Of a stretch of DNA of 64,000 nucleotides, positions 3,155 through 58,351 are shown in pieces (position 1 is the stretch's first letter; every line of letters begins with the position of its first letter). The stretch comes from an uncultured Bacilli bacterium (GTDB lineage Bacteria > Bacillota_I > Bacilli_A > RF39 > UBA660): positions 53,442 to 117,441 of the forward strand of contig CAKONZ010000002.1 in the NCBI GenBank assembly GCA_934098525.1. Direction: 5' to 3'. A program made the position numbers and the translations under genes. The notes under the pieces were generated by a model. That model saw nothing but the letters and a program-made list of their open reading frames with translations. It made no database searches and was not told the origin of the DNA.

Positions 3155-3157
3155 ATC

Positions 3158-3988: not shown

Positions 3989-5722
3989 CTATTCTCCCTC
4001 TACATTGGAATCATCAGGTTTATCAGGGGTAACATCATAATTAGTTCTAGCCTTAGCAACAACAATCTTAAATGTCGCACCACTAGTTACTACTGAATCT
4101 GCTTCCCTACTTTGTTCAATTATTACACCAGGTTCATAATCATCTGTTTCTTTATATTCAACTATCAAAGAAACACCCTTTTCATTAGCCCATTCAGAAA
4201 CCTTTTCAACAGTCCAAGCCTCAGTAACAAAATTTGGATACTTCTCAACCTTTTTAGGTATATAAATAGTTATCTTATCACCAGCTTTTAACTCAGTGCC
4301 TGGTTCAACATCTTGTGCTACAATCTCTTGTTTATCATATTTCTTTTCATTTGTATCCTTAACTTCTTTTTCTTCTACATTAACTTCAATACCATACATC
4401 TCAGTAAGTAAAGTTTTAATTTCGATATAATTCTTTCCTGTCAAATCCTCTACTTTATACTTCTTCATACCTGTAGAAATAATTAAAGTAATACTAGTAC
4501 CAGCTTTAACAGTTCTACCCTTCGAAGGATTAGTACCAATAACCTTTCCCTCTTCAACTTTATCAGAAGCCTTTTCAATCACATCAACATTAACATCTAA
4601 ACCTAATTTTTCTAACTCTTTCTCAGCAGTTTCAACTGTATAATTATTTACATCTGGTATAGTTACATCTGGAACTTTAGAAATATTAGGTAAAATTATA
4701 AATATAAATAACAAAGCAAGTATCATCACAAATACAGAAGCTCCAAGAATTACAATCTTTTTATTTTTTTTCTCTTCATCCTCTTCAGTTATTTGTTCAA
4801 CAAAACTTTTATCTTTATTATTATCATTAGTAACTATTTCTTGATTTTCATCTATTCCTTCAGAATATTTAAATTTAATTAATGGTTCATTTTTACGATC
4901 TTTATCTAAAACTGTTTTTAAATCTTCATACATTTCATTAGCATTAGCATATCTATTCTTAGGATTCTTAGCAGTTGCTTTTAAAACAACATTTTCAACA
5001 CTTTGAGGAACATCAGGTAAAACATCTCTAATTCTAGGCATAGGTTCTTTTAAATGCTTTAAAGCAATCTCTACAGCATTATCTCCTCTAAAAGGAAGTT
5101 CTCCTACTATAAGCTCATACATCATAATTCCTAAAGAATAAACATCGCTCTTTAGTGTAGCACCTTTACCACTTGCTTGTTCAGGTGGAAAATAATGAAC
5201 AGAACCCATAGCAGAATTAGTTTGAGTAAGTTGTGTAGCATTTAAAGCCATAGCAATACCAAAATCAGTTATTTTAATACCACCATCATCTTTTATTAAA
5301 ATATTTTGTGGTTTTAAATCTCTATGAATAATTAAATTATCATGAGCAACACTCATAGCACTAGTGATTTGTAGCATAATATCTACAACCTCACTGACTG
5401 TAAGTCCTCCTCTTTTTTTAATTAACTGTTTCAAATTTTTTCCTGGAACATATTCCATTACAATAAAATAGTCCCCATTATCTTCACCAACATCATATAT
5501 TTCTACAATATTAGGATGAGAAAGACTAGAAGCAGACAAAGCCTCACGTTGAAAACGTCTTACAAACTTTTCATCTGTAGCTAAATCCCCTCTTAAGACC
5601 TTTATAGCAACTTTCCTATCTAAAATAGTATCTTTAGCTAAATAAACATTAGCCATTCCACCTTCACCAATAGTGGTTAATATTTCATACCTATCATTAA
5701 CCTTTTGTCCCTTGACTATCAT
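3989..5722 (-). CDS. prkC: Ser/Thr protein kinase with PASTA repeats
   Basis: HRDLKPQNILI and DFGIA kinase motifs, a central TM segment, and C-terminal repeated PASTA-like modules. Confidence 0.9.
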   Translation of the reverse strand: MIVKGQKVNDRYEILTTIGEGGMANVYLAKDTILDRKVAIKVLRGDLATDEKFVRRFQREALSASSLSHPNIVEIYDVGEDNGDYFIVMEYVPGKNLKQLIKKRGGLTVSEVVDIMLQITSAMSVAHDNLIIHRDLKPQNILIKDDGGIKITDFGIAMALNATQLTQTNSAMGSVHYFPPEQASGKGATLKSDVYSLGIMMYELIVGELPFRGDNAVEIALKHLKEPMPRIRDVLPDVPQSVENVVLKATAKNPKNRYANANEMYEDLKTVLDKDRKNEPLIKFKYSEGIDENQEIVTNDNNKDKSFVEQITEEDEEKKNKKIVILGASVFVMILALLFIFIILPNISKVPDVTIPDVNNYTVETAEKELEKLGLDVNVDVIEKASDKVEEGKVIGTNPSKGRTVKAGTSITLIISTGMKKYKVEDLTGKNYIEIKTLLTEMYGIEVNVEEKEVKDTNEKKYDKQEIVAQDVEPGTELKAGDKITIYIPKKVEKYPNFVTEAWTVEKVSEWANEKGVSLIVEYKETDDYEPGVIIEQSREADSVVTSGATFKIVVAKARTNYDVTPDKPDDSNVEGE

Positions 5723-7492: not shown

Positions 7493-9250
7493 CTATAATT
7501 CCTCATTTAAATACTTTTTTAGTTCTACAGCAACATCTCTTGGTATTATTTTACTAAGATCTTCTATATCAGCTTCTTTTATCTTATTAATAGTCTTATA
7601 CTTTAACAAAAGTTGTTTTCTTCTCTTTTCTCCAATTCCCGAAACATTATCTAAAATACTTGCTAAACTACCTTTAGACTTTATATCTCTATGATAACTA
7701 ATTGCAAAACGATGAACCTCATCTTGCATTCTTGTTAAATACAAAAATAAATTATTATTTAAAACCTTTACTTCTCTTCCATCAGACATAACTATCATAC
7801 TTGTTCTATGTTTATCATCTTTCTTTAGTCCTATAACTAAAATATCAAGTCCCAAAGAATTTATAATATCAAGAGCAACCCTAACTTGATTAAGACCACC
7901 ATCTACTATAACAAGATCAGGAAGCATAGATTTTTCTAAAAGAAGTCTATAATATCTTCTATAAATAACCTCTTTCATAGCAGACAAATCATCTTTAACT
8001 AAAGAATCAATTTTATACTTACGATACTCCTTTTTATTAGCAATAAAATCATCAAAAACAACCATACCACCAACATAATAAGTACCAAACAAATGAGAAT
8101 TATCAAATAATTCAATTCTATGAATATTTCTTCCTAAAATATCATTCAAATTCTTAATAGCCTCCGCTCTAATATCATCATTTCTTTTAATCAACTCTTG
8201 CTTTTCCTTAGAATAAATAGAAGCATTTAAATTAGCCATATTAAGTATTTTCTTCACATCACCCTTTTTAGGAGAAACAACAGAAACACCTAAGCACTCA
8301 GTAAGTGTAGAAGTATCAGCAATATCATTAACCACTATTTGCTTAGGCAAATCATACTTATCATAAAACTCTATAATATATCTATTATAAACATCCTCAT
8401 AATCAATAAAATCATTAATAATTTTGTTATGTTTACCAATAACAACTCCCTCTCTAACAAACAAAACCTCAATAGTCAAAAAATTAGTACTAACATCAAA
8501 ACCAAAAACATCAAAATTATACTTAATATTAGAAACAATAATCTGTTTACTAATAGTAGTCTTAATATCAGAAATAATATTCTTAATCTCAAGAGCCTTT
8601 TCGTAATTTAAAGAATCACTATAAGAAATCATTTGCTTTTCTAACTTTTCCACTATCATTTTGTAATCACCATTCAAAAAAGCAGTTATTTCCTTAACCA
8701 TCTTATCTATAACACTCTTATCTACATCATATTTACAATACCCTAAGCACTGATTAATATGATAATATAAACAAACATCTTTTTTTAAATGATCACATTT
8801 TTTTAATGGATAAATCCTATTAATCAAATCAACAGTATTTCTAGCACTAACAACATTCGGATAAGGTCCAAATAACTTATCCTTAACCTTTTTTCTCTCC
8901 TTTTTTCTAACAATCTTAACACTTGGATACTTCTCATTTGTAAGAGCTATATAAGGATAAGTCTTATCATCCTTAAGTAAAATATTATACTTAGGATTAT
9001 ATTTTTTAATCAAATTAATTTCTAATATCAAACACTCCCTATTAGTATTAGTAACAATATAATCAAAATCATTAATATGTTCAACCAAAGCTTTAGTCTT
9101 TCCAGTATGAGTCTGCATAAAATAAGACTTAACTCTATTTTTTAAATTCTTTGCTTTTCCAACATAAATAATATTACCATCAACATCTTTCATCAAATAA
9201 CAACCTGGTTTAGTAGGTAATAACTTTAATTTTTCTCTTATCAAATCCAT
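7493..9250 (-). CDS. uvrC: excinuclease ABC subunit C
   Basis: N-terminal GIY-YIG (GCYLMKD...IIYVGKAKNLKNRVKSY) and C-terminal HhH. Start is chosen at MDLIREKL, which has AGGATG-type RBS spacing. Confidence 0.9.
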   Translation of the reverse strand: MDLIREKLKLLPTKPGCYLMKDVDGNIIYVGKAKNLKNRVKSYFMQTHTGKTKALVEHINDFDYIVTNTNRECLILEINLIKKYNPKYNILLKDDKTYPYIALTNEKYPSVKIVRKKERKKVKDKLFGPYPNVVSARNTVDLINRIYPLKKCDHLKKDVCLYYHINQCLGYCKYDVDKSVIDKMVKEITAFLNGDYKMIVEKLEKQMISYSDSLNYEKALEIKNIISDIKTTISKQIIVSNIKYNFDVFGFDVSTNFLTIEVLFVREGVVIGKHNKIINDFIDYEDVYNRYIIEFYDKYDLPKQIVVNDIADTSTLTECLGVSVVSPKKGDVKKILNMANLNASIYSKEKQELIKRNDDIRAEAIKNLNDILGRNIHRIELFDNSHLFGTYYVGGMVVFDDFIANKKEYRKYKIDSLVKDDLSAMKEVIYRRYYRLLLEKSMLPDLVIVDGGLNQVRVALDIINSLGLDILVIGLKKDDKHRTSMIVMSDGREVKVLNNNLFLYLTRMQDEVHRFAISYHRDIKSKGSLASILDNVSGIGEKRRKQLLLKYKTINKIKEADIEDLSKIIPRDVAVELKKYLNEEL

Positions 9251-9260
9251 ACAAATCATC

Positions 9261-10031
9261 CTAACTTCGTTTTTTACTAGACATATATCTATTAATATAA
9301 ATAGGTAAATTTAATGACTTACCATTCAAATAATTAATTGCCTCAAGCAAAGTAACATCATCTTTTCCCAGTGTTACACTAAAACTCTTACTAACAACTC
9401 CCGAAACAAATTCTGCCAAATATAACTTATCTTCTAAACAAACTTCATCTTTCTCTTTATTTTCTCTATCACCCAAAAAATCTTTCAAACTTACTGAAAG
9501 AGAAAACAAAATATTTTCATATATATTCTTCTCTAAAGATGTAATTTCATAACCCATATGTTTAGCAAATTCTATTAAATTATCTGCATTATTTTTAATA
9601 TTCTTATAATTATAACTTCTAAGATTAATCATTGGTAAATCTTTCAATGAAGAATAAGCATACTCCTCAGGAACCATAATACATTTTATTTTAGACCTAT
9701 CAATCTTATCCTTAACAAATACCTCATCATTATAATTAATATACTCTTCATTATAATCATAAATAAAATCAACATCTTCAACAATAAAACTAATTCCTTT
9801 TTTAGCAAACCTATTATAAGATGAATTAACTCCATTATCAACATAAATATATCTAATCATAGATATATATTCATCAAAATTATAACCATCAAAATTTCTA
9901 GCCAAATTAACATTTTCTCTTAAAGCAGACTTTTCTGACAATATACCATGTTCTAATATAGAAGAAAACTTAAATAAATTAAAACCAACTGAATGAATTA
10001 AAGTATTTTCACTAAACTTATAATAATCCAT
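9261..10031 (-). CDS. hypothetical protein
   Basis: ORF with no recognisable domain. Likely start at MDYYKF (ATG 10031-10029), preceded by RBS GGTGGTGA and an extended -10 TGcTATAAT at 10047-10055. Confidence 0.4.
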   Translation of the reverse strand: MDYYKFSENTLIHSVGFNLFKFSSILEHGILSEKSALRENVNLARNFDGYNFDEYISMIRYIYVDNGVNSSYNRFAKKGISFIVEDVDFIYDYNEEYINYNDEVFVKDKIDRSKIKCIMVPEEYAYSSLKDLPMINLRSYNYKNIKNNADNLIEFAKHMGYEITSLEKNIYENILFSLSVSLKDFLGDRENKEKDEVCLEDKLYLAEFVSGVVSKSFSVTLGKDDVTLLEAINYLNGKSLNLPIYINRYMSSKKRS

Positions 10032-10115
10032 AATATCACCACCTAAATTATAGCAAAACAACGATATAAATAAAAGAAAAAGAAACAATTAATGTTTCTT
10101 TATAAATGGAAATAA

Positions 10116-11034
10116 TAAGTGTCCGCACATAAAATCACCTTATAAGTGCTAATTTATATTTCTAATAATATCATATTTGAGCTTTTATAATCAAACATTG
10201 CTCTTGGATAATTATTTATCCAATCTTCAATTTGTTTTATAAATGATGTTTTTATATTTGTTATGTCCGTTCCTTTGGGTATCCACCTTCTTATCAATCT
10301 ATTATTATTTTCATTTGTTCCTCTTTCTCCAGAACAATATGGATGTGCATAATATATTTCTGTTCTTTTCTTTTTTCTTAAACATGATTTTTCTAGCCCT
10401 TCATATCCCATAAATTCAACTCCATTATCAAACGTTATACTCTTAAAGACTTTATAAAACTTTCCTTGATATCTTCTTTCAATTCTATCAATCGCTTTTG
10501 CTACTGTCTTTGTTTCTTTATTTGGAAGTTTCATTATTATTTCTTGCCTTGTTTTTCTTTCTGTTAATGTAAATAACACAGGTTTAGTTCCTTGTTTTCC
10601 AATAACTAAATCTCCTTCCCAATGACCATATATTTCTCTTGTTTTTGCCTCCTTGGGTCTATATTCAATACTTTTTTCTGCCGGTATCATTTTAGATACC
10701 CTTTTTTCTTTATTCTTATTATTATATCCCTTTTTGTATATTATCTTTCCTTGTTTTAAATCATTAAATATAACCCCACTTTTAATTGCATTTCTTATTG
10801 TTCTTTCGCTTTTATGCAATAATTCTGCTATTTCTTTCTTGCTCTTTTTATCTGAATTATACCAAGTCTCTATCATTGTCCTTTCTGAATATGTTATATG
10901 TTTATATTTTTTGATTTTTTTGTTATAATTTAAAAGACACATAGTTTATTACCTCCAATGTTAGTTCGCACTTACATTGTATCATAGGTAATTCTATGTG
11001 TCTTTTTTTATGTCCCTTTTCGGACACTTAATTT
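10116..11034 (-). mobile_element. IS30-family insertion sequence (about 0.9 kb)
   Basis: A single transposase ORF is flanked by imperfect terminal inverted repeats. They share TAAGTGTCCG plus ACATAAAA (left 10118-10140; right 11003-11032 in reverse complement). Confidence 0.65.
10154..10942 (-). CDS. IS30-family DDE transposase
   Basis: N-terminal HTH. HWEGDLV, ITFDNGVEF and NENNNRLIRRWIPKGTDI motifs give the IS30 DDE triad signature. RBS GGAGGT is 9 nt upstream. Confidence 0.8.
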   Translation of the reverse strand: MCLLNYNKKIKKYKHITYSERTMIETWYNSDKKSKKEIAELLHKSERTIRNAIKSGVIFNDLKQGKIIYKKGYNNKNKEKRVSKMIPAEKSIEYRPKEAKTREIYGHWEGDLVIGKQGTKPVLFTLTERKTRQEIIMKLPNKETKTVAKAIDRIERRYQGKFYKVFKSITFDNGVEFMGYEGLEKSCLRKKKRTEIYYAHPYCSGERGTNENNNRLIRRWIPKGTDITNIKTSFIKQIEDWINNYPRAMFDYKSSNMILLEI

Positions 11035-16504: not shown

Positions 16505-17653
16505 TTAACTATTTGCTATAGAATATCTTAAATTTCTTAAATACAATTCTAAAATATTTAATTTATCTATATCTTTATCAGTAACTAAATCTTTTTTTAA
16601 AACTATATTTTTTCCATCAAGTATTTCTATTCTACCAAGTACATCTCCCTTTTTTATAGGAAGATTCATATCATTTAATACTACTCTATAATCATATTTT
16701 TTATCCTTATCACTCTTCTTATTTACTAAAATAATATCATCTTTACTAAATAATTCAATATAATCTTTTTTACCTTTATTTACATTCACTCTTTGAATAA
16801 CTTGATTCTTTTTAAATAAAATTTTCCCTTCATATTGATTAAAAATATAATCTAATAAATCACTAGTCTCACTATTTCTTGTATTAGTATCACCATATCC
16901 TAAAGTAACTACTATTACTCTAAAATTATTTTTATTTATTGTAACAGCCATACACTTACCAGCCTCATCAGTAGATCCTGTTTTTAATCCATCAACACCA
17001 TCATAAAATCTAACTAATTTATTTGTATTTACTATCCATGATTCGTTATCAGTACCTTTTCTAATATAATCTTCATATACACTAGTAAAATTCAAAACAT
17101 CCTCATACTCCAATAAATGTTTAGCAATAATTGCCATATCATAAGCACTAGAATAATGCCCTACTTCATCTAATCCTGTACAATTTTTAAAATAAGTATT
17201 TTTTAAGCCATACTCTTTAACCTTATTATTCATCTTCTTTACAAATGCTTCTTCTGTTCCTGATATTCTTTCTGCCATTGCCACCATTGCATCATTAGCA
17301 GATGCCAAAGTAATACCTTTAATTAAATCATTAATAGATATTTTTTCCCCTTCTTCAAGCCAAATCTGTGAACCTCCCATTTCCTTAGCATTTTTTGAAA
17401 CAGTAATAACTTCATCCAAACTAATTACTTTATTCTCCAAACTTTCAAAAATAAGTATTAATCCCATCATCTTAGTAAGAGACGCTACCGAAGAAATTTC
17501 ATTAGCATTTTTATTATATAAAATTTGCCCTGTAGAAACATCCATAGCAACAGCACTCTTAGCATTTTTAGTAACATCAGCCTCTAACTCTAAAGCAAAA
17601 ACATTAAATGGACTTAACAAAATAATCAAAAAACAAATCAATAACTTTTTCAT
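16505..17653 (-). CDS. D-alanyl-D-alanine carboxypeptidase (PBP5 family, DacA/DacF-like)
   Basis: Signal peptide. SxxK (ASLTKMM), SxN (SAND) and KTG (KTGST) motifs. Confidence 0.85.
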   Translation of the reverse strand: MKKLLICFLIILLSPFNVFALELEADVTKNAKSAVAMDVSTGQILYNKNANEISSVASLTKMMGLILIFESLENKVISLDEVITVSKNAKEMGGSQIWLEEGEKISINDLIKGITLASANDAMVAMAERISGTEEAFVKKMNNKVKEYGLKNTYFKNCTGLDEVGHYSSAYDMAIIAKHLLEYEDVLNFTSVYEDYIRKGTDNESWIVNTNKLVRFYDGVDGLKTGSTDEAGKCMAVTINKNNFRVIVVTLGYGDTNTRNSETSDLLDYIFNQYEGKILFKKNQVIQRVNVNKGKKDYIELFSKDDIILVNKKSDKDKKYDYRVVLNDMNLPIKKGDVLGRIEILDGKNIVLKKDLVTDKDIDKLNILELYLRNLRYSIANS

Positions 17654-17753
17654 TTTACACCTCTAATAAATTAAATGTTAACTAAGATTTTTTATACTAA
17701 ATTTTATTTAAAATAATATTATTTAGTGATATTATATTTTTAGGAGAATCAAA

Positions 17754-18704
17754 ATGAAAAAGAAAAACAAAAAAGAAAATAATTTATTGAATAATATCAT
17801 ATTTTTAATATGTATATGTTTTATAGGAATAGGAGTATATTATTTGAAAGTACCATTAAAAAATAAAATTAAAAACATTGAAAACAAAACCGAAGAAAAA
17901 AATAATCAAAATAGTAAAAATAATAATAATCAAAATAACAACAGTGATCAAAAAGAAGATAAAAGTTATGAGATTTATAAAAAAATACCTGGTTTTAAAT
18001 TAAAAAACTTAGATAGATATATAGAATATCATAATAACAAACCAGATCTATCATATGACCAAGTTGTAACATATGTAAATATAGGCTTAGATCATGATTT
18101 CTATTCCTACATAAGTGAAACTGACACTACTTATGGTGTAAACTTATTAGTAAATAAATTTTTAAAATTACCGGATAATTATGAACCAGATGATCTAGAA
18201 GAAATCAATAAAGAATACTTTATAAATGGCAATCTATATGTTAGAAAATTAAGAAAAGAAGCTAAAGAAGCATTTGAAAAGCTGTCAAAAGCTTCAATTG
18301 AAGAAGGATATCCCGTATATGGTCAATCAGCATATAGACCATATTCAATGCAAGTAAATTTATACAACAATGCATTAAACACAATGACAAAAGAACAAGC
18401 TGATGATGACACAGCAAGACCAGGACACTCAGAACATCAAACCGGACTAACCATAGATGTCTCATCAAATAAATATGGTAACATGTTAAATTTTGAAAAC
18501 ACTGATTCATTCCAATGGATGCAAGATAATGCTTACAAATATGGTTTTATATTAAGATACACAAAAAATGAAACCAACATTCATGGTTTCATGTATGAAT
18601 CATGGCATTATAGGTATGTTGGAGTAAAAGTTGCTACAGACATGCATAATAATTATCCTACTCTTACATATGATGAATACTATTACAAATTCATAGAAAA
18701 ATAG
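17754..18704 (+). CDS. VanY/peptidase M15 family D,D- or L,D-carboxypeptidase, membrane anchored
   Basis: N-terminal TM. SAYRPYSMQ, SEHQTGLTIDV and ESWHYRY motifs match the zinc-binding residues of VanY-type enzymes. Confidence 0.8.
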   Translation: MKKKNKKENNLLNNIIFLICICFIGIGVYYLKVPLKNKIKNIENKTEEKNNQNSKNNNNQNNNSDQKEDKSYEIYKKIPGFKLKNLDRYIEYHNNKPDLSYDQVVTYVNIGLDHDFYSYISETDTTYGVNLLVNKFLKLPDNYEPDDLEEINKEYFINGNLYVRKLRKEAKEAFEKLSKASIEEGYPVYGQSAYRPYSMQVNLYNNALNTMTKEQADDDTARPGHSEHQTGLTIDVSSNKYGNMLNFENTDSFQWMQDNAYKYGFILRYTKNETNIHGFMYESWHYRYVGVKVATDMHNNYPTLTYDEYYYKFIEK

Positions 18705-42526: not shown

Positions 42527-42751
42527 ATGAAATATATGAATAACCCACCAATAATAATATCAACTAAAGACTTATCTTACATATGTGATATATTTAATTG
42601 GAACTTCAATGCTTGTAAATTAATAAATAGTTTCATTGAAAATATAACAAATCAAGAAATAAAAGACTATTTAAATGAATTATACTACACTCATAAAAAT
42701 ATATGTGAAGAACTTATAAAAATGATATATTTGGAGGATAATTATGAATAA
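42527..42751 (+). CDS. hypothetical small protein, partner of the Coat-F-like gene
   Basis: 74-aa ORF overlapping the next gene by 8 nt. No recognisable motif. Confidence 0.4.
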   Translation: MKYMNNPPIIISTKDLSYICDIFNWNFNACKLINSFIENITNQEIKDYLNELYYTHKNICEELIKMIYLEDNYE

Positions 42752-43058
42752 TAAAATAGCTAACAATGAACAAACAGTACCAAAAACAATTGAATTAAAT
42801 GATAGAGACTATTTAAACATAGTCCTAGAAACAGAGAAAAACATGTCTAATAACTTATCAATTGCAATTGATGAAGCAAGCAATGAAGTATTATATAATA
42901 AATACTACTCTATATTTAATCAAATAAAAACATCTGCAAGAAACGCTTATAATATAATGTTTAAAAATGGTTGGTATGAGTTAACAAAAGCAAAAGAAGA
43001 AGACTTAACAGAAGAACATACAAAATTAAATGAAAAAATAAATGAATTAACAAAATAG
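42744..43058 (+). CDS. spore coat protein F-like (Coat_F domain) protein
   Basis: LNDRDYLNIVLETEKNMSNNLSIAIDEASNE...MFKNGWYEL resembles the Coat F domain (LNDRDYLNDLL...EKY...A..EA...LFN.MFKKGWY). Confidence 0.55.
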   Translation: MNNKIANNEQTVPKTIELNDRDYLNIVLETEKNMSNNLSIAIDEASNEVLYNKYYSIFNQIKTSARNAYNIMFKNGWYELTKAKEEDLTEEHTKLNEKINELTK

Positions 43059-46567: not shown

Positions 46568-48697
46568 CTATTCATCAAAGAAATCATCAAAAAATTGATC
46601 ATCAGTAATATTATTATATTTTTCACTAACAGAAGACAAAGGTTTCAAAGTAGAATTATCTTTCATATCAGTATCTTCAACATAAATATCTTTAACTGTA
46701 TTAACATCTTCAACTTTTTGTTTTTTATTTTTCAAAGCTTCTTGTTCAGCCTTTTCTTCAGCTTCTAATTCTGCTATCTTAGCATCTATTCTTTTAACCA
46801 AATCATCTACAGATATAGAAGAATCCTTATTATTAGAATCAGAACTAGGATTAGCAGAAGATGGTTCAAATAAATTTTGTCCAAAAGGATTAGCAGCAAA
46901 AGGATTGGCTGCAAACGGATTAGCAAAAGGATTTATACTTTGTCCATTTGGAGAATTTACCATATTATTAAAATTCTCTTTTTTCTTGCTCTGAACAAAA
47001 TCTTTTAAACTAAATACTGAAATCTTTTCCTTTTCTCTTTGAACAAATGGATCAGCTTCACCATACTTAACTCCCCAATCTATTTCAAAATTAGGTTTTA
47101 ATCTAGTTTTAAAAGGATCCAATCTAACTCTTTTTACTATAGCTTCAAACTGTTTCATTCTTTGAAGATCTGCTACTGTTGCTAAAGGTCTTGTCTCTTC
47201 ATGTTCTTTATCACCCTTACCAACTTTTACTCTTCTCTCACCACATAACTCAGATATCTCTTTAAGTGCAGCAAGTTCAGTAGTAAGTAAATATAACATA
47301 TTATTACAGTTACTTCTAATAGTTTGAGCATTTTCTTTTCCATAAACAGCATCAAGTCCAGCAAAGTTCTGAATTATCATAGTAAATCTGATTTTTCTAG
47401 AACGAGCTGCTGTAATCATTGTAGTAACGTCCTTCAAAGGAGGCATATTCTGGAACTCATCAAGAATAAAATTAGTTCTTACAGGAAGTTCACCATTATT
47501 ACTATTTTGTGCCACATCAATTAATGATTCATAACATTGCTTAATAAATATTGTAGCAAGAGCATGATAAGTTTTCTTTTCATCTTGAATAATCATAAAT
47601 ACTGCAGTTTTTTCTTTTCCTATTGACTCCATCTCAAAATCACTTCTAGAAAGCATTTCTGAAAGATTTTCACGAGATGCAAACAATCTGATTTTTTGTT
47701 TTAATGTAGAAATAATAGAGCCCTTAGTCTCCTCAGGAGCATAAACAGTACCTGAAGCACAAGTATATGCAGCACCAGCTGGATCCTTAGCATTAAAATA
47801 TTCTTTTATATAATTACTTCTAGGTCCATATTTTTCTTCACCCTCAGTAGTCATCAAAGAAACACTATTAATATTAACCTGCTCCGGTTTAGCATCCTCA
47901 AACAAACCTAAAGTAAGACCTGAAAAATAATCTGCTGCTGTCTTTTCCCAGAATGGGTCTTTACTTCCACCCTCTTCATACAAAATATTAGCAGCTAAAT
48001 CGTCTAACAACTCCATAGCCTTATCACTATTACCATTTCTATATAAACTATATGGTAAAGCAAGAGGATTCCAACAATTTCCTCTTTGTGGCTCTCTGAA
48101 GTTCAAAATAACAATTTTATATCCTCTTTCTTTCAATAAACCAGCACTCTCACGATATATTTCACCCTTAGGGTCAGTAATAATCATTGACTCACCCTTC
48201 TTAGCCAAAATTTTAACCAATGGATGAATAATACATTGAGTTTTACCAGTACCAGTTGAACCTATTACTAAGTTATGACTTTCACCATTATCAACCCACA
48301 TCTTTTCTCCATCATTTATAATTGGAAAACCTGCTTTTTCATAATATGGGTCTTTTACTCTAACTTCACTTAAAGTAGACTTCATTTCTTTTGGTTTACA
48401 CCAATCAGAATAGCCCTTCTTTTCTTTCTTTCCTATAGAAAAACCAAAACCTTCTTCTCTTTCAAAAAAATATGACTTACAAGAAACAAATATAAATACC
48501 ATTAATAACAAATAAAGTATTAATAACGCATCTAAATGATTTACAAAAGCAGGAAATGGATTTAATCCAGCAAAACCTTCACCAGCTGCTGCAGATGCTA
48601 AATTATTAACAAATATAGCTACAACAAATAATCCAACAACAGCAAATATTAAAAATATCAACCAATCTTGTAAAGTAGCTTTAAATTTAAATTTCAT
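46568..48697 (-). CDS. type IV secretion coupling protein (VirD4/TraG/TcpA-like ATPase)
   Basis: Two N-terminal TM helices. Walker A VIGSTGTGKT and Walker B FILDEFQN. The C-terminal tail carries NPFANPFAANPFAANPFG repeats and an acidic end. Confidence 0.8.
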   Translation of the reverse strand: MKFKFKATLQDWLIFLIFAVVGLFVVAIFVNNLASAAAGEGFAGLNPFPAFVNHLDALLILYLLLMVFIFVSCKSYFFEREEGFGFSIGKKEKKGYSDWCKPKEMKSTLSEVRVKDPYYEKAGFPIINDGEKMWVDNGESHNLVIGSTGTGKTQCIIHPLVKILAKKGESMIITDPKGEIYRESAGLLKERGYKIVILNFREPQRGNCWNPLALPYSLYRNGNSDKAMELLDDLAANILYEEGGSKDPFWEKTAADYFSGLTLGLFEDAKPEQVNINSVSLMTTEGEEKYGPRSNYIKEYFNAKDPAGAAYTCASGTVYAPEETKGSIISTLKQKIRLFASRENLSEMLSRSDFEMESIGKEKTAVFMIIQDEKKTYHALATIFIKQCYESLIDVAQNSNNGELPVRTNFILDEFQNMPPLKDVTTMITAARSRKIRFTMIIQNFAGLDAVYGKENAQTIRSNCNNMLYLLTTELAALKEISELCGERRVKVGKGDKEHEETRPLATVADLQRMKQFEAIVKRVRLDPFKTRLKPNFEIDWGVKYGEADPFVQREKEKISVFSLKDFVQSKKKENFNNMVNSPNGQSINPFANPFAANPFAANPFGQNLFEPSSANPSSDSNNKDSSISVDDLVKRIDAKIAELEAEEKAEQEALKNKKQKVEDVNTVKDIYVEDTDMKDNSTLKPLSSVSEKYNNITDDQFFDDFFDE
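46880..46935 (-). repeat. short tandem DNA repeat encoding the NPFA peptide repeats in the coupling protein tail
   Basis: Plus-strand AAAGGATTAGCAGCAAAAGGATTGGCTGCAAACGGATTAGCAAAAGGATT, with a 12-15-nt unit repeated about four times. Confidence 0.6.
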
Positions 48698-48715: not shown

Positions 48716-50506
48716 CTAAAGTCCTCCGCCACTACCAAATGAATCTAACTCTTCTTGAGATAAAATAACAGACATTCTCATTCTTCTAGAACCACAAACA
48801 AACAATGCTTCTCCTTGAGAATATTTCTTTATACTTTCCTTTTCATTATCATTTAAATCAATAAGTAAAGACAAATCTTCAACAGCTTGTTTCTTTAATC
48901 CCATAACTAAATAATAAGCAGCATTATCAAATATTGCCTTACCTTGAGTAATAACAGCTTGTGGTGTAAAATCACTAGGTTGTTGAGTAATAATTATATT
49001 ACCTGTATTATACTTACGACTTCTTCTTTGAATTTGAGCCAAGAAATCAGCTCCTAAAACATTACCACCAGATAATAATACATGAGCTTCATCAACCATC
49101 ATAACTGTATTAATAGAAGAATCCAAACACAAACTCCATGCATATTTCAAAATATTAAAGAACAATGCATTACGAACATTAACATCAGCATTCATTAACT
49201 CTCTAATATTAAATACTATAAAATTACTTTTTGGAGCAATAGTAGTATGTCCATTAAAATAAAATTTCAATTCATTTGTAATAGGTCTAATCTTAAGCTC
49301 TAATCTCTCTAAAATATCTCTTTCATGTGACATTTCTGGACTAGCCATAAGTTTTCCTTTAATAGTAGCATAAACATCATCAAAAGTAGGATAATTCTCT
49401 GATTTATAATTAGAAAAATCTGTATTAAAATCAATACCAAATCTACGATAAGTATCTTGAACTAACTCAATAAAAACATTAAGAACATCCTCTTCTATAG
49501 ATGGATCATAATATTTCATAAATGCTTTTAAAAATTGTAAAGTCTTAGTAAGAACAGTATATCCTAACCCTTGTTTAACTTCATCTTCATCAGCATCAAT
49601 TAATACTTCAAGTGGATTAATTAAACCAAACTCTCCACCTTTACCTAAATCAATATTATCTCCGCCAAATAAATCAGTCATATATTTCAATTCATTTTCA
49701 GGGTCAATTGCAACAACTTTATAACCATTTCTTAAAGCAGATCTCAACATTAACTTAGCAGCAGTAGATTTACCACTACCAGAAGTACCTAATATAATCA
49801 TATTAGCATTATTTCTATTATGTTCTTTTCTTATTTGATATAAAAACTGATTAAATAAAACAACTCCTCCAGAAAAATCAATACCCATTAATGTAGAAGG
49901 ACCTGGATCTTTAATAGTATCAAATATAAAAGGATACATACCAGCCATAGTAGGAGAAGGCATAATTGTACCAACTCTTTCCTCTACATCTTGTTTAGGG
50001 AAAATAGGTAAAATTGATTTTAATACTTTTTCTTGTTCAAACTTAATTGGAACAGCCCTAAGTAACTTAGCATCCAAATAGTTTTTAACTTGTAGTCTCT
50101 TTACCTCTAATTCTTCTTTTGTATCAGCAGTAAGTACTAAGTGCATTTGAAAATCAAAAGTCTTAGCATTATTAGCCGCTAATTGTTGAATATATTCTTC
50201 TAAAGTCTCATAGTCCTGTCTAATTCTTTCCTGTGCAGTAGCATCTTTTTCTTCACTATATCTTTCCTTTAAATCAGCAAGTTGTTTATTTAATAACTTA
50301 CTAAGAGTTTGAAAAGGAACAGGAATATGTTTAATAACAACCTTAACACCAGGCATACTAGTAAGATCAGATAAAAAACCAACCTCTACAGATCTAGGAT
50401 AAGAAATAGCAGTCAATATTGTCATATACTTATCAGCAACTCTAATAGTATCAGGAGTAAACTCTAATCCTTTTGGAGCAACTTCAGACTTAATAGCGCT
50501 TCTCAT
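48716..50506 (-). CDS. VirB4-family T4SS ATPase (TrsE/TcpF/Orf16-like), lacking the extreme N-terminal region
   Basis: Walker A ILGTSGSGKST and Walker B MMVDEAH. The upstream MAGMYPF segment is typical of VirB4 N-domains. Start ATG overlaps the upstream ORF stop as TAATG. Confidence 0.8.
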   Translation of the reverse strand: MRSAIKSEVAPKGLEFTPDTIRVADKYMTILTAISYPRSVEVGFLSDLTSMPGVKVVIKHIPVPFQTLSKLLNKQLADLKERYSEEKDATAQERIRQDYETLEEYIQQLAANNAKTFDFQMHLVLTADTKEELEVKRLQVKNYLDAKLLRAVPIKFEQEKVLKSILPIFPKQDVEERVGTIMPSPTMAGMYPFIFDTIKDPGPSTLMGIDFSGGVVLFNQFLYQIRKEHNRNNANMIILGTSGSGKSTAAKLMLRSALRNGYKVVAIDPENELKYMTDLFGGDNIDLGKGGEFGLINPLEVLIDADEDEVKQGLGYTVLTKTLQFLKAFMKYYDPSIEEDVLNVFIELVQDTYRRFGIDFNTDFSNYKSENYPTFDDVYATIKGKLMASPEMSHERDILERLELKIRPITNELKFYFNGHTTIAPKSNFIVFNIRELMNADVNVRNALFFNILKYAWSLCLDSSINTVMMVDEAHVLLSGGNVLGADFLAQIQRRSRKYNTGNIIITQQPSDFTPQAVITQGKAIFDNAAYYLVMGLKKQAVEDLSLLIDLNDNEKESIKKYSQGEALFVCGSRRMRMSVILSQEELDSFGSGGGL

Positions 50507-51249
50507 TATATAATCACACTCCCTGCCTCATATTTTCTTCCCCCATTTAATAAATTATCCAAAATGGTTCTCAAATCATCATCACTTGTTTGACTACAAG
50601 TAAGATCACAACTACTAATACCATTAATTAAATTTCTAAGTTTCTTTTGTAAGATATCAAGTTTCTTTTCTTTAAATAAAATATAATATTCAATATCTGA
50701 AACCTGATTATTAACAAATATATCACCCTTATTCATATCCTGAGCTATTATCTTTCTAAGTCTAGGATCATTAGTTTTATTAAATAATATTTGCATCTCA
50801 GCTTGATACATAGAAATATCAACTGGTCTATCTGCTATCATAAGCCAAAACTCAAAATCAATAGTATTATAAAAATTCATAAGACCAAAAATTATATTAT
50901 CAGCTTGAAATTGTTCAAGAATGAAAATATTTTTAGGTTGAATTTTTACACCAGTTACCATATACCCATCTTTAGTATAAATAATATTATTTTTAATTGT
51001 CTTTAAATTAAGCCAATTTTCAGTATACCTAGGATTACTTATAGCAGCCTTAGATAACTTCTTACCTCCTGACATTTTAGTAGACATTCCTGACTGTACC
51101 CTCATTCCAGGAGTCATTGCATTATTCATAGTTTGTATAGTTTGAGTATTCTGCATATTTGTTTGATTATTACTTTGATTATTACTAAAATTAGAAATTC
51201 CTTGGGAACCCTGATCTTGGTAATTCATCTGATTCTGTTGGTTGTTCAT
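50506..51249 (-). CDS. hypothetical protein with Q/N-rich N-terminus. Possibly the detached N-terminal domain of VirB4
   Basis: 247 aa. The first approximately 60 residues are low-complexity Q/N/S. The remainder is globular. Translationally coupled to the VirB4 ORF. Combined length (843 aa) equals a typical Gram-positive VirB4. Confidence 0.4.
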   Translation of the reverse strand: MNNQQNQMNYQDQGSQGISNFSNNQSNNQTNMQNTQTIQTMNNAMTPGMRVQSGMSTKMSGGKKLSKAAISNPRYTENWLNLKTIKNNIIYTKDGYMVTGVKIQPKNIFILEQFQADNIIFGLMNFYNTIDFEFWLMIADRPVDISMYQAEMQILFNKTNDPRLRKIIAQDMNKGDIFVNNQVSDIEYYILFKEKKLDILQKKLRNLINGISSCDLTCSQTSDDDLRTILDNLLNGGRKYEAGSVII

Positions 51250-54105: not shown

Positions 54106-54447
54106 CTATTTTACAATGCCATTGTCACATTGGGCATTATTAGGATTAGTTGCACAAGTCCAACATAAATCAGAATCAAAATTTTTACCTACTAATCCAA
54201 ATGCAGCTTGAACAATTGTAACAACAAAGAAAATTACTACACCATAAATTAATCTTTTGATTAACATCTTTTGAGCAGCCTTGATTTCCTTATCTTCACC
54301 AGCCATAACAGCTTTACCTAAATCAATCATAGCCATTAAAACTATAATAATTGGAATAGCTATTTTTAAAATATTAATTACTAAACCTATTAATTTCCAT
54401 ATTGCAACTGTATCTTTACAAAAAGTAGCAGCATCTAACATATACAT
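54106..54447 (-). CDS. small Cys-rich two-TM membrane protein (VirB2/pilin-like candidate)
   Basis: Likely start MYMLDAATFCK... (RBS GAGAGG). Two TM helices, and a C-terminal tail DLCWTCATNPNNAQCDNG with four cysteines. Confidence 0.4.
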   Translation of the reverse strand: MYMLDAATFCKDTVAIWKLIGLVINILKIAIPIIIVLMAMIDLGKAVMAGEDKEIKAAQKMLIKRLIYGVVIFFVVTIVQAAFGLVGKNFDSDLCWTCATNPNNAQCDNGIVK

Positions 54448-54530
54448 ATACATAACCTCTCTCTCTACAACAATTATAAAATAGATAAATATTATTGTCA
54501 ACAATTTATTTTTACATAAACTTAAGTTTA

Positions 54531-55520
54531 CTACATATTACTTCTTCTAATCAATTTTTTTATTTCTTCTTTTAAACGATTTCCATCACTTATAGCACCA
54601 TTATATGATCCAGTATAATCAGAATCAGAATCATAAACGCCATCAAATGGTCCAGCAAATCTAACTCCATTAAATTTACAATTTGACAAATCTTTATTAT
54701 ATATTGTTTGTGGATTTATAACTACTCCTATTGCTCCAGTAAAATCAGTATTACAAATTTTTGTTGCATCAAAAGGTCCAACAAATTTAACACCACGGAA
54801 ATTACAATAGCTTAAATCTCTATTGTATACTGTTTGCGGATTTATAACTGCTCCAATTGAATTTGAAAATTTAGAACCAGAAATTTTAACTCCGTGAAAT
54901 TGTCCACTGAACTTAACATTACCGAAATTACAATTTGACAAATCTTTAAAATTGATTTTTTGTGGATTTATAACTGCCCCTCTTGAACCTGAAAAATCAC
55001 AGTTTTCAACTCTAACGTAGCCAAACGAACCAATAAATTCAACTCCAGAAAATTTACATTCAGATAAGCAATGACTTTTAATATCAAATGGAGCAATTCT
55101 AGCACCAACCGATCCTGTAAAATCAGAATTATCAATTCTTACATCATTAAATGATCCAATAAATCTAACTCCGGAAAATTTACAATGACTTAAATCTTTT
55201 TCTATTATTGTTTGTGGATTGATAGTTATTCCCTTAGTACCAGAAAAATCAACACCACGTTTTTCATAAAATGAATGACATCTAAATAATGAAAAATCTA
55301 TACCTGTAAAATCAATTTTATTTAAAAATGGTTTTATCTCCTCACAAAACTCTTTATATTGACTATCTCTACCAACATTTTTATAATCAAAAATAAGCCT
55401 ATATAGTGATCCACTTCCAATATTTAATTTATTTATTTGAACTCTTTTTCCTTCTTCTAAGTTTTTTAATTCTTCTATAAATATTTTTCTTGTTTTTTCA
55501 ATTATGTCTTGACTAATCAT
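54531..55520 (-). CDS. pentapeptide-repeat protein
   Basis: Approximately 100-aa N-terminal domain, then at least five approximately 41-aa modules of the type INPQTIYNKDLSNCKFNGVRFAGPFDGV, built from A(D/N)LxX pentapeptides. Confidence 0.8.
   Translation of the reverse strand: MISQDIIEKTRKIFIEELKNLEEGKRVQINKLNIGSGSLYRLIFDYKNVGRDSQYKEFCEEIKPFLNKIDFTGIDFSLFRCHSFYEKRGVDFSGTKGITINPQTIIEKDLSHCKFSGVRFIGSFNDVRIDNSDFTGSVGARIAPFDIKSHCLSECKFSGVEFIGSFGYVRVENCDFSGSRGAVINPQKINFKDLSNCNFGNVKFSGQFHGVKISGSKFSNSIGAVINPQTVYNRDLSYCNFRGVKFVGPFDATKICNTDFTGAIGVVINPQTIYNKDLSNCKFNGVRFAGPFDGVYDSDSDYTGSYNGAISDGNRLKEEIKKLIRRSNM
54660..55230 (-). repeat. intragenic approximately 125-bp periodic DNA repeat (pentapeptide-repeat modules)
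   Basis: Recurring AAATTTACAATTTGACAAATCTTT...TTTGTGGATTTATAACT units at about 54671, 54800, 54917 and 55166. Confidence 0.6.
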
Positions 55521-55644: not shown

Positions 55645-56067
55645 ATGAAAAATAAATTTATAGTTATTATAATTACTATAATTGTCATATTAGGTGGTAT
55701 TGTATTAATATTTGGTAATGATTCTGATAAATACCTACAAGAAATAACTTATAAAAAACTAGAAGAAAAAATAAAAAGTAATGAGTCATTTCCTTTGCTT
55801 ATAATGTCATCACAATGTATTCATTGTCAATCCTTCGATCCAAAATATAAAAGTGTACTAAATAAATACGAAGTAACATCATATTATATTAATTTAACAA
55901 CTTTAACAAAAGCTGAAAAAACTTCTTTATATGAATTAACACAATATGAAGGAACTCCAACAGTAGTATTCTTTAAAAATGGTAGTATGACAAAAACTAC
56001 AATCGAAGGAGATAAAGATAAAGAAGTAATTATAAGTAAATTAAAATCTTCAGGATTTATAAAATAA
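55645..56067 (+). CDS. membrane-anchored thioredoxin-fold thiol-disulfide oxidoreductase (BdbA/ResA-like)
   Basis: N-terminal TM, then thioredoxin fold with CIHC (CxxC) active site. Confidence 0.75.
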   Translation: MKNKFIVIIITIIVILGGIVLIFGNDSDKYLQEITYKKLEEKIKSNESFPLLIMSSQCIHCQSFDPKYKSVLNKYEVTSYYINLTTLTKAEKTSLYELTQYEGTPTVVFFKNGSMTKTTIEGDKDKEVIISKLKSSGFIK

Positions 56068-56101
56068 AAAATATTTAGCATTCACGCTAAATATTTTTTA
56101 T

Positions 56102-58351
56102 TTACTCATTATTTTTTTCTTTTTCTTTATCTTTTTTTAATAACTCTTCTTTTAAAAATTCTTCATCTTCATTTTTATTCAAGAAATAAATTATTAATGT
56201 ACCAAGTAGTACTATAATTATTACCTTTATAATACTACCCCAAATTATTTCATCTTTTTTAACTTCTTCTTTACTAATATCACTAACTACAATATCATCT
56301 TTTTTCAAAGTATCATCAGTATCTATATTATCTGTATCATCAATTATATTATTAGTTTTAATAATTTTATTATCATCATTATTTTTATTATCATTTTTAA
56401 CTTCTTTTTCTATTAAATCAAACGCTAATAAATCATCTATATTATTTACAGTATAAACACTACCATTTAAATTAACTTCAATATTATCTTTATTAGGTAA
56501 TCTTTTAAAAGTTAATTTTACAAGTAAAGTATTATTAGAAAATTCACCATATCCTAATAATTTCAAAGTATTATTTTCATTAACTAAATAAATATTTTTA
56601 TCTGTTTCATAAGAAACATAATCTATATTAGAAAAATTCAAATTAAACTTAATACCATTAACAACTCCTAAAGTATCTAAATATACTTCATAGTAAACAT
56701 AATTTTCATCATAAGTTTTAACAATTCTATAACTAGCATTTTCAATTTCATCTCCTAAAGTAATTAAATTTAAAATACTAGCAAGTTTAACAACATCTAA
56801 GGTATCTACTTTCTTATCATTATTTATATCTAATAAATAAGTATTATCTAAATCATTATTATTAATTTTATCAATCAATAAACTTAAATCCTCTTCATCA
56901 AGAATACCATTATTATTAATATCCCCATTTATTAATATCTTAAATACATATCCATTATCAACAGTAATAGTATTATTACTATAATCAATACTAAAATTAA
57001 TATATTGATCATTCAAATTCTTTACAAATAAATTATTATCTAAGTCATTTATATTATTTAAAACATTATATAAAATAATATTCTTTTCATTACTACCAAT
57101 ATAATAATTAGATTCATCTAATAAACCAATTTGAATATTATTAATCATTACATCATAAATACTTTTTCTAATATCATCATCTAAATTATCCAAAGCTGTT
57201 AATTTTTCTAATAATTTAATCATTTCATAACTATTATCATTAGAAATAATATTACGTATAATATCATAAACTTTTTCACTACTATAAATATTATAATAAT
57301 TATTCAAATCAACTAAATAATTATTAACAGCATCACTATCACTAGGTTTTCTTTCTAAATAATTATTAATATCATTCATCAATATATTATAAGTATCATC
57401 AAAACCAATCAATTTAATATAATTATCAATTAAATCTTGATCAATACTAATACTATTTTTAACTAAATTATCTACATTTTCATAATCATTTTTTAAACTA
57501 TCAATTCTATTTAATAAATTATTATTACTCAAATTTGAATTATTATTATAAAAACTATTTTCTACTTCAGTTAATCTACTATTAAAATCACTAATATTAT
57601 TATTAATAGTTAAAGTATCTAATACTTCAATAGATAAAATATAATTTTTTATATCACTTTTTATATTTTCTAATAAATCATAAACATTACTATCATTAAT
57701 AGTCATATTAGGAACATTTCCTAAACTAATTTCATTATTATAATAATTATCAACATCATTTTTTAAATTATCTACATCACCAATAATACTATTAAATGTA
57801 TTAATATAATTATTATAAATACCAACTAATTCATTAATCTTATCATCAACATTTATATAATCAGATATTAATACATCATTATCATGAAATATATTATTAA
57901 TAATTAAATTAATAATATTATCCTCACCTAATGTAGATATTATATTAGGATCAATAGCATCATAATCATAATTATTAATTATTAAATCTTCTGTCAAACC
58001 CAAAGAATTATAATTATTTATTAATAAAGTATTATTAGAATTTAATATAAGTCTAGTCAAATTAATAGTGTTATTATTATATACTAATGTTGCATGATTA
58101 GTATTAATATCACTAACATTTTTATAAATAGTATCAACTGCAACTTTATATGCCACACTATCTATATAATTTTGACTACCTTTCTTTTCTAAAATATCAT
58201 TATTAATATTTACTATTTTACTATCAAAATCAGCAAAATAATTTGTAAATTGTGTACTAACAGCATTAACCATCATTACTATAGGCATAAAAAAATTACA
58301 TACCAAAATCAGTAATGTAAATAATGCTATATGTCTTAAACTTTTCTTCAT
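56102..58351 (-). CDS. large N/D/I-rich surface protein with dockerin-like repeat pair and C-terminal TM anchor
   Basis: Start MKKSLRHIALFTLLILV (RBS GGGGAGGA) gives a signal peptide. DINNNGILDEEDLSLLIDKI and DINNDKKVDTLDVVKLASIL form a calcium-binding dockerin-type repeat pair. A beta-rich module and the tail-anchor IIWGSIIKVIIIVLLGTLIIYFL follow. Confidence 0.55.
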   Translation of the reverse strand: MKKSLRHIALFTLLILVCNFFMPIVMMVNAVSTQFTNYFADFDSKIVNINNDILEKKGSQNYIDSVAYKVAVDTIYKNVSDINTNHATLVYNNNTINLTRLILNSNNTLLINNYNSLGLTEDLIINNYDYDAIDPNIISTLGEDNIINLIINNIFHDNDVLISDYINVDDKINELVGIYNNYINTFNSIIGDVDNLKNDVDNYYNNEISLGNVPNMTINDSNVYDLLENIKSDIKNYILSIEVLDTLTINNNISDFNSRLTEVENSFYNNNSNLSNNNLLNRIDSLKNDYENVDNLVKNSISIDQDLIDNYIKLIGFDDTYNILMNDINNYLERKPSDSDAVNNYLVDLNNYYNIYSSEKVYDIIRNIISNDNSYEMIKLLEKLTALDNLDDDIRKSIYDVMINNIQIGLLDESNYYIGSNEKNIILYNVLNNINDLDNNLFVKNLNDQYINFSIDYSNNTITVDNGYVFKILINGDINNNGILDEEDLSLLIDKINNNDLDNTYLLDINNDKKVDTLDVVKLASILNLITLGDEIENASYRIVKTYDENYVYYEVYLDTLGVVNGIKFNLNFSNIDYVSYETDKNIYLVNENNTLKLLGYGEFSNNTLLVKLTFKRLPNKDNIEVNLNGSVYTVNNIDDLLAFDLIEKEVKNDNKNNDDNKIIKTNNIIDDTDNIDTDDTLKKDDIVVSDISKEEVKKDEIIWGSIIKVIIIVLLGTLIIYFLNKNEDEEFLKEELLKKDKEKEKNNE

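Follow-up and report, generated by a model that had tools for sequence, protein, structure and literature searches.

A 64,000-nucleotide stretch of an uncultured Bacilli genome (positions 53,442 to 117,441 of contig CAKONZ010000002.1; hereafter the window) includes a type IV secretion system (T4SS) in which the VirB4 ATPase is not encoded as a single polypeptide. Three consecutive, overlapping genes specify a small VirB3-like membrane protein of 119 residues, a 247-residue protein resembling TrsD, and a 596-residue VirB4 core. The reading favored here, to which a probability of about 85% is given, is that these genes encode a functional, translationally coupled ATPase module in which the TrsD-like protein would rebuild the N-terminal domain of VirB4 non-covalently and in which a low-complexity tail on that protein would be tolerated. 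A first-pass annotation of the window had recognized the 247- and 596-residue open reading frames (ORFs) as parts of VirB4 and had offered two explanations, a genuine two-gene arrangement with a disordered or prion-like extension, or a gene broken by a frameshift. The former is borne out by the division of the gene in all 87 related loci compared, by alignment of the shorter protein with the N-terminus of VirB4, and by the disorder predicted for its extension, but the module has three parts rather than two, the overlapping VirB3-like ORF having been missed.

A VirB4 ATPase Encoded in Separate Parts

Residues 202–594 of the 596-residue ORF match the structure of the VirB4 C-terminal domain (4AG5, E 2.7e-49), and the Walker A and B motifs attributed to this ORF earlier (GTSGSGKS and VDEAH) are read directly from the translation. 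As the structural match begins at residue 202, some 200 residues precede the ATPase domain, so that the ORF begins inside the VirB4 N-terminal domain, as had been supposed. The best-scoring model for all three ORFs is NF045975 (VirB4_plasma), an NCBIfam model of 894 positions representing the fused VirB3-VirB4 protein of mycoplasma integrative and conjugative elements (ICEs). The ORFs tile this model collinearly, positions 2–92 being covered by residues 6–89 of the 119-residue protein (E 3.8e-4), positions 92–277 by residues 63–236 of the 247-residue protein (E 5.8e-13), and positions 295–891 by residues 5–588 of the ATPase (E 8.4e-102). Curated cutoffs for VirB4 are missed by the ATPase (341.4 against 590 bits for NF045975, 76 against 643 for TIGR00929, and 164 against 325 for NF045971), which is best described, from its sequence, as a clear VirB4 homologue that is not an equivalog of any curated subfamily. 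The N-terminal domain of about 400 residues that typifies VirB4 and is ordinarily carried on one chain of about 800 residues is here shared between the 247-residue ORF and the first ~200 residues of the 596-residue ORF, with the same division in all 87 loci. Together the two proteins sum to 843 residues, or about 780 without the low-complexity tract, in keeping with the earlier observation that their combined length is that of a normal VirB4.

A word-indexed search with the 247-residue protein found 4699 homologue clusters, the best 120 of which are all stand-alone proteins of 158–260 residues. The 304 relatives returned by an exhaustive HMMER search of 1.8 billion representatives, at identities down to 22–30%, are likewise mostly stand-alone and about 180–240 residues long; two of them are full-length VirB4 proteins of 800 and 839 residues in which the domain lies at the extreme N-terminus (residues 10–137 and 27–169). 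When the 247- and 596-residue proteins are concatenated, they align end to end with these fused relatives, their junction corresponding to a variable linker of 25–30 residues, and one fused relative, 38% identical, is continuous across the junction. An AlphaFold model built from 56 homologues predicts an α/β domain at residues 63–234 preceded by a disordered segment (residues 1–62, pLDDT ~30), and every one of the top 10 Foldseek matches of this model in the PDB is a chain of R388 TrwK/VirB4; a PDB search with the sequence of the protein returned nothing meaningful. Whether this ORF covers the VirB4 N-terminal domain had originally been left to alignment. The positions matched in NF045975, the fused relatives, and the TrwK fold all support that homology, and sequence and model together identify the 247-residue protein as the N-terminal subdomain of VirB4. 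A local Pfam-A scan at E ≤ 0.1 assigned no family to this ORF or to the 119-residue ORF. The public precomputed annotation gives this exact 247-residue protein the entry PF26593 (“TraC-like”), which is absent from the local scan; the discrepancy probably reflects a difference in version or threshold.

Conservation of the Split

A scan of one genome per GTDB species, for which a narrower alignment (A2) was used because a diverse alignment of 29 sequences (A1) was too divergent, gave about 400 encoding stretches, the best 80 loci of which come from metagenome-assembled genomes (MAGs). The related loci compared here number 87 and are drawn from 80 species-level MAGs and independent assemblies. 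The MAGs of the best 80 loci carry titles such as uncultured Mycoplasma sp. (including “Mycoplasma sp. CAG:611”), Tenericutes, Bacilli, and Erysipelotrichaceae, and are presumably RF39-like gut Bacilli. The three homologues are consecutive in every locus, and the ATPase is always read in a different frame from the N-domain gene, whose stop codon overlaps the ATPase start as ATGA in 73 loci, as TAATG in 12, and by 8 and 11 nucleotides in one each. In the window itself the plus strand reads CATTA at 50504–50508, that is, TAATG on the coding strand, where the TAA stop and the ATG start have one base in common, exactly as first reported. Identity to the window proteins ranges from 64 to 84% for the ATPase, from 50 to 67% for the TrsD-like protein, and from 34 to 57% for the VirB3-like protein, levels that point to selection on every piece. 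The identical 247-residue protein is found on three separate contigs, and a relative that is 63% identical has the same gene order on five independent contigs.

The ATPase is 594–599 residues long wherever it is complete, the exception being an interrupted copy in locus L007. There (2195–3982) the VirB4 frame is broken after 198 codons while the tblastn match runs to full length, which represents an error of assembly or else a true pseudogene in that single genome.

The alternative raised initially, that a frameshift mutation or a sequencing or assembly error cut a continuous VirB4 gene and left a pseudogene or an artefact, draws on two facts. Fused full-length relatives exist, at 28–38% identity, and the 119- and 596-residue ORFs lie in one frame with the 247-residue ORF in the +1 frame, a pattern superficially like two compensating frameshifts. 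The same frame pattern and overlap recur, however, across the 87 loci and their independent assemblies, the identical protein appears on three contigs, stand-alone homologues number in the thousands, and experimentally studied conjugative plasmids are split likewise. Nor does the junction contain the homopolymer that had been suspected of causing an error. The conserved split and overlap in all of the loci rule out a frameshift error or recent pseudogenization, an explanation whose remaining likelihood is negligible, and the split is, as read from these sequences, an intact and widely conserved gene arrangement rather than a broken gene.

Programmed ribosomal frameshifting at the overlaps would offer a different account, by which some fused TrsD-VirB4 or VirB3-TrsD-VirB4 protein is made, as in the mycoplasma enzyme. 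The collinearity of the three ORFs with a fused protein, the frame order (A, A+1, A), which some 80 of the 87 loci share, and a Shine-Dalgarno-like GGAGAGG upstream of the VirB3-like/TrsD-like overlap are all compatible with this idea. Against it, the junction sequences vary among loci (GCCATTATGA, GCCAGTATGA, ATATAATGAG, and others) and offer no canonical slippery heptamer, the VirB3-like/TrsD-like overlap ranges from 16 to 116 nucleotides, the C-terminal tail of the VirB3-like protein is unconserved, and both ATGA and TAATG are ordinary termination-reinitiation overlaps. As no conserved slippery heptamer precedes the junction, programmed frameshifting is set aside as very improbable, and separate proteins made by coupled translation remain the preferred reading.

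The upstream overlap shows more variation. In the window the 3′ end of the 119-residue ORF runs 59 nucleotides into the 247-residue ORF in the other frame (51191–51249), and among the relatives (L002–L086) the most frequent overlap is 20 nucleotides. The TrsD-like start lies just downstream of conserved W-R-G-W-C-Y-Q-Y codons of the upstream gene and overlaps the Y-E-Q codons that follow; conservation of the VirB3-like protein is lost in the tail beyond this motif. A conserved 59-nucleotide overlap considered for L002 was rejected as a gene-caller start artefact, the value being 32 nucleotides when measured from the conserved MNNQ start.

Relation to TrsD and TrsE

Sequence comparison places the locus as a divergent form of the TrsD/TraD plus TrsE/TraE organization of pGO1/pSK41-type Gram-positive systems. 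The split itself is not new, and the view of the locus as unusual for a T4SS does not hold for the arrangement, which those systems share (PMC12102498). What is new here is a divergent TrsD plus short-VirB4 locus with a lineage-specific disordered tail. Literature searches for split VirB4, for RF39 together with T4SS, and for TrsD together with TrsE returned nothing on point, and a text search of the main text of Guglielmini 2014 does not find TrsD named there.

The relation to TrsD is drawn through intermediates. TrsD has been described as resembling the VirB4 N-terminus (PMC12102498). Distant stand-alone homologues of the window protein (E 1e-9 to 1e-13) also match NF041427, the NCBIfam model “TrsD/TraD family conjugative transfer protein,” which by name also covers TraD of pIP501. 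Among 29 aligned members of the family, 28 match the N-terminal part of the VirB4 model and 14 match TrsD (E < 0.01), and a broad family profile detects pSK41 TrsD with a probability of 97.2% (E 3.4e-11). The position of the gene fits as well, a soluble protein of about 200–230 residues being expected between a VirB3/TrsC/PrgI-like gene and the gene for a short VirB4-like ATPase. The TraD of the pELF paper, a VirD4 homologue, was considered and found irrelevant to TrsD/TraD. The window ATPase matches pSK41 TrsE with a BLASTP E of 1e-44, residue 21 of the former aligning with residue 50 of the latter.

In pSK41/pGO1 of Staphylococcus aureus, trsC (135 residues), trsD (227 residues), and the gene for TrsE, a 672-residue DUF87 ATPase, are overlapping or adjacent. 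As in the window, a CD1115-family VirD4 and a TrbL-family protein are present, and a CagC-family protein stands where the window has a pilin-like protein; the companion set found in the window (CD1115-type VirD4, TrbL/VirB6-like protein, and a weakly matched pilin/CagC-like protein) is of the MPF_FATA kind seen in pGO1. Unlike the window protein, pSK41 TrsD has no 62-residue tail rich in glutamine and asparagine (Q/N), and pSK41 is a plasmid whose tra region includes a relaxase, a CHAP hydrolase, TopB, and SSB, none of which was found near the window module.

Among plasmids, tblastn gave direct matches solely in conjugative Bacillus plasmids. In pIS56-68 of Bacillus thuringiensis the genes run from a MobP3 relaxase through VirD4 (CD1115), a small hypothetical ORF, TrbL, a PrgI-family protein, and a 227-residue hypothetical protein to a 630-residue DUF87 ATPase, so that TrbL, VirB3-like, TrsD-like, and ATPase genes follow one another exactly as in the window. 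The window proteins match the 227-residue protein and the ATPase with E values of 4e-14 and 2e-83, respectively. As the ATPase alignment starts at residue 9 of the window protein and residue 24 of the plasmid protein, the two split points fall within about 15 residues of each other, and the cut in genuine conjugative plasmids coincides with that in the window. The VirB3-like ORF occupies the position of pSK41 TrsC and of the PrgI-family gene of pIS56-68, with weak pairwise similarity, and a homologue of it stands directly upstream of the TrsD-like gene in all 87 loci. In other respects pIS56-68 differs, being a plasmid with an adjacent MobP3 relaxase, a VirD4 gene upstream rather than downstream, no Q/N-rich tract, and only 27–29% identity. 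The split point, located by these alignments in an inter-subdomain linker, appears to be ancient and common to pGO1/pSK41-type and Bacillus conjugative plasmids.

Other systems partition the same components differently. The Mbov_0397-family VirB4 of mycoplasma ICEs is one fused VirB3-VirB4 chain where the window has three genes. The T4SS of Patescibacteria (TrsD, PrgI/VirB3, VirB4, VirB6, and VirB2-like) has the same MPF_FATA-type set with a separate TrsD and, like that of the window, is chromosomal, belongs to reduced genomes, and mostly lacks a neighboring relaxase (PMC12102498); Patescibacteria belong to a different phylum, however, and their VirD4 gene is usually not adjacent to VirB4, whereas in the window the two genes are neighbors. 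The best structural match for the TrsD-like domain, TrwM/VirB3-TrwK/VirB4 of R388 (PDB 7O42, 8RTB), differs in that TrwK is a single 823-residue chain, about 10% identical, from a Gram-negative system with an outer-membrane complex.

The Q/N-rich Tail

The low-complexity segment that the first-pass annotation had placed at the N-terminus of the 247-residue ORF is confirmed: residues 1–62 are 40% Q+N and 5% charged, against a Q+N background of 8.8% in 11 large proteins of the window, in which no 60-residue segment exceeds 27%. No other frame is open across the stretch, which indicates that the tract is translated, and a 12-nucleotide tandem duplication (SNNQ SNNQ) lies within it at 51162–51186. 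In the nearest clade (L001–L034) the protein typically starts with MNNQMNN, and 40–111 residues of low complexity, enriched in N, Q, S, M, and G, precede a conserved Y-T-E-N-W motif. The sister clade has instead an N-terminus of only 9–20 residues, such as MAKKVTSGY, and neither TrsD nor the Bacillus plasmid homologue has the tract; no homologue profile reaches it. A tract so variable, predicted to be disordered, and missing from relatives has probably expanded by slippage in a genome of 25% GC.

Residues 1–62 have the length (about 60 residues or more), Q/N enrichment, and low complexity expected of prion-like Q/N-rich domains. Beyond composition, nothing supports the earlier suggestion that the extension is prion-like, and its variable length and its absence from the sister clade speak against this. 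From these sequences a conserved prion-like functional module is not supported.

The VirD4 protein of the same module also ends in low-complexity repeats (NPFANPFAANPFAANPFGQNLF) followed by an acidic, lysine-rich tail (window ~46568–46900), so that disordered tails are not confined to the TrsD-like protein.

Proposed Assembly of the Module

How three polypeptides might act as one ATPase can be proposed from their homologues. Ribosomes ending the TrsD-like gene would restart on the ATPase gene at the stop/start overlap (termination-reinitiation), and this coupling would keep the levels of the two proteins about equal. Non-covalent docking of the TrsD-like protein onto the N-terminal ~200 residues of the ATPase would then complete the VirB4 N-terminal domain. 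In R388 this domain (residues 15–400) mediates VirB4 dimerization and is wrapped by VirB3 (PMC9259494), from which it is suggested that the VirB3-like protein holds the composite domain at the membrane, beside the VirB6-like protein. Residues 1–62, with their Q/N-rich composition, would form a flexible, disordered tail, arisen by slippage and probably not needed for function.

A descendant of the VirB4 N-terminus could also have taken up an independent role, as a regulator, a substrate adaptor, or an assembly chaperone, with the Q/N tract serving as an interaction or phase-separation module. The faster evolution of the TrsD-like protein relative to the ATPase would fit such a role, as would the composition of the tract, which is kept across the nearest clade. 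The gene, however, directly precedes the ATPase gene in every case and is coupled to it; without the TrsD-like protein, the ATPase is short of some 185 residues at the start of a normal N-terminal domain; and the tract is as inconstant in length and distribution as described above. Such a role is considered unlikely, and reconstitution of the VirB4 N-terminal domain by the TrsD-like protein remains the preferred interpretation.

Several points weigh against that interpretation. The 247-residue window protein does not match the NF041427 model at E ≤ 0.1, and a narrow family profile (A3) does not detect pSK41 TrsD significantly (E 0.19), which makes membership in TrsD transitive and a matter of the superfamily rather than of the curated family. 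The AlphaFold model is of moderate confidence (mean pLDDT 63.8, lowered by the disordered tail), and the Shine-Dalgarno-like GGGAG upstream of the ATPase gene, at 12 nucleotides from the ATG, is rather far. Binding of the TrsD-like protein to the ATPase or to the VirB3-like protein is itself inferred.

Genomic Setting

In the ORF list of the window, the minus strand holds every gene of the T4SS region (Table 1), and the six-gene module is kept across related loci. The VirB6-like gene is upstream in 78 of 85 loci and the pilin-like gene holds the same position in 61 of 85, its match to T4SS_pilin in Pfam being weak and below the cutoff (E 0.032). The VirD4-type protein also matches Pfam T4SS-DNA_transf (E 1.6e-56).

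Table 1. Predicted features of the T4SS module in the window
Feature	Size and description	Position	Strand	Basis
Small pilin-like membrane protein	132 aa as listed; 113 aa in public gene call	54106..54504	-	
VirB6/TrbL-like polytopic membrane protein	812 aa	51580..54018	-	Pfam TrbL_4, 36.1 bits (cutoff 27)
VirB3/PrgI/TrsC-like small membrane protein	119 aa; two hydrophobic helices	51191..51550	-	
TrsD-like gene	247 aa; stand-alone VirB4 N-terminal subdomain	50506..51249	-	
Q/N-rich low-complexity N-terminal extension	residues 1-62 of 247-aa ORF	51064..51249	-	
TAATG stop/start overlap	TrsD-like gene / VirB4-core gene	50504..50508	-	read from sequence
VirB4 core ATPase, TrsE-like	596 aa; rest of N-terminal domain and RecA-like C-terminal domain	48716..50506	-	
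Walker A, GTSGSGKS	residues 240-247 of 596-aa protein	49766..49789	-	translation; numbering checked in TrsE alignment
Walker B acidic pair	D472-E473 (MMVDEAH)	49088..49093	-	translation and TrsE alignment
VirD4-type coupling protein	709 aa	46568..48697	-	NF045973 conju_CD1115, 316.5 bits (cutoff 250)

Pfam scans covered 48 ORFs of the window, five of which had no match, ORFs shorter than 90–120 residues falling outside the scan; among those 48 no relaxase, integrase, or CHAP/SLT hydrolase was found. The other assigned ORFs are housekeeping genes, namely mutS, an rsmI-like gene, topA, rnhB, a pyrimidine-nucleoside phosphorylase gene, dnaE, ileS, lon, ezrA, ligA, uvrC, and rlmN, together with genes for a PASTA kinase and PBP5-type carboxypeptidases. 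In the ~2–3-kb flanks of the other loci, the housekeeping genes that border the module in the window were not found.

Variation at the edges of the module and within it was also seen. A membrane-anchored thioredoxin-like protein is encoded divergently upstream (55645–56067, plus strand), with a homologue in the same position in 11 loci, and the pilin-like protein carries C-terminal cysteines. Between these two genes lies a gene for a 329-residue pentapeptide-repeat protein (54531–55520, minus strand) that has no counterpart in other loci. Some relatives have an extra large gene between VirB4 and VirD4, coding in L040 of a sister clade (8373–10691) for a 773-residue protein with a SpoIID (peptidoglycan-lytic) domain and in L018 (8512–11253) for a 914-residue protein with a prepilin-type N-terminal methylation motif; both kinds are absent from the window.

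Elsewhere in the window, a 769-residue ORF (56102–58411, minus strand) has no Pfam match and no homologue in related loci and occupies the most AT-rich part (17% GC at 56001–58000). A 262-residue ORF (10154–10942, minus strand), 35 kb from the T4SS module, combines an HTH_38 domain with a sub-threshold integrase-core (rve) match and is probably an IS30-like transposase remnant. Over the whole window (1–64000) GC content varies between 17 and 32%, GC skew stays strongly negative, and the minus strand carries almost all of the genes; at 29–32% the T4SS module has a slightly higher GC content than its surroundings (~25%). A PASTA-domain Ser/Thr kinase, PBP5- and VanY-type carboxypeptidases, and a Coat F-domain protein (3989–5722, 16505–18704, and 42744–43058) indicate that the organism makes peptidoglycan, despite the “Mycoplasma sp.” and “Tenericutes” titles of its relatives.

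Implications

For annotation, the 247-residue gene and its thousands of relatives, now mostly labeled “hypothetical protein,” are to be read as detached VirB4 N-terminal subdomains (TrsD-like), and a short ATPase beside a TrsD-like gene should not be flagged as truncated or pseudogenized. For the function of TrsD/TraD, the locus offers a concrete hypothesis, completion of the VirB4 N-terminal domain. The collinearity of the three ORFs with the fused mycoplasma VirB3-VirB4 suggests moreover that one and the same machine can consist of a single polypeptide or be divided at domain linkers into two or three.

About 400 species-level genomes, read as RF39-like gut Bacilli, encode a relative. By analogy, the chromosomal and relaxase-less setting of the module resembles that of the TrsD-containing T4SS of Patescibacteria. 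A tentative extension of this likeness, for which the odds are well below even, is that the six genes form a chromosomal T4SS without a relaxase that has been widely kept across the reduced genomes of these gut Bacilli and would serve, by co-option, a purpose beyond the self-transfer of a mobile element, for example contact-dependent exchange with partner cells or DNA uptake. What may merit a study of its own is the spread of this relaxase-less module among uncultured RF39-like gut Bacilli. If the extension is true, the module would parallel the essential TrsD-containing T4SS of Patescibacteria, and the split VirB4 would be the condition ancestral to an entire branch of monoderm T4SS.

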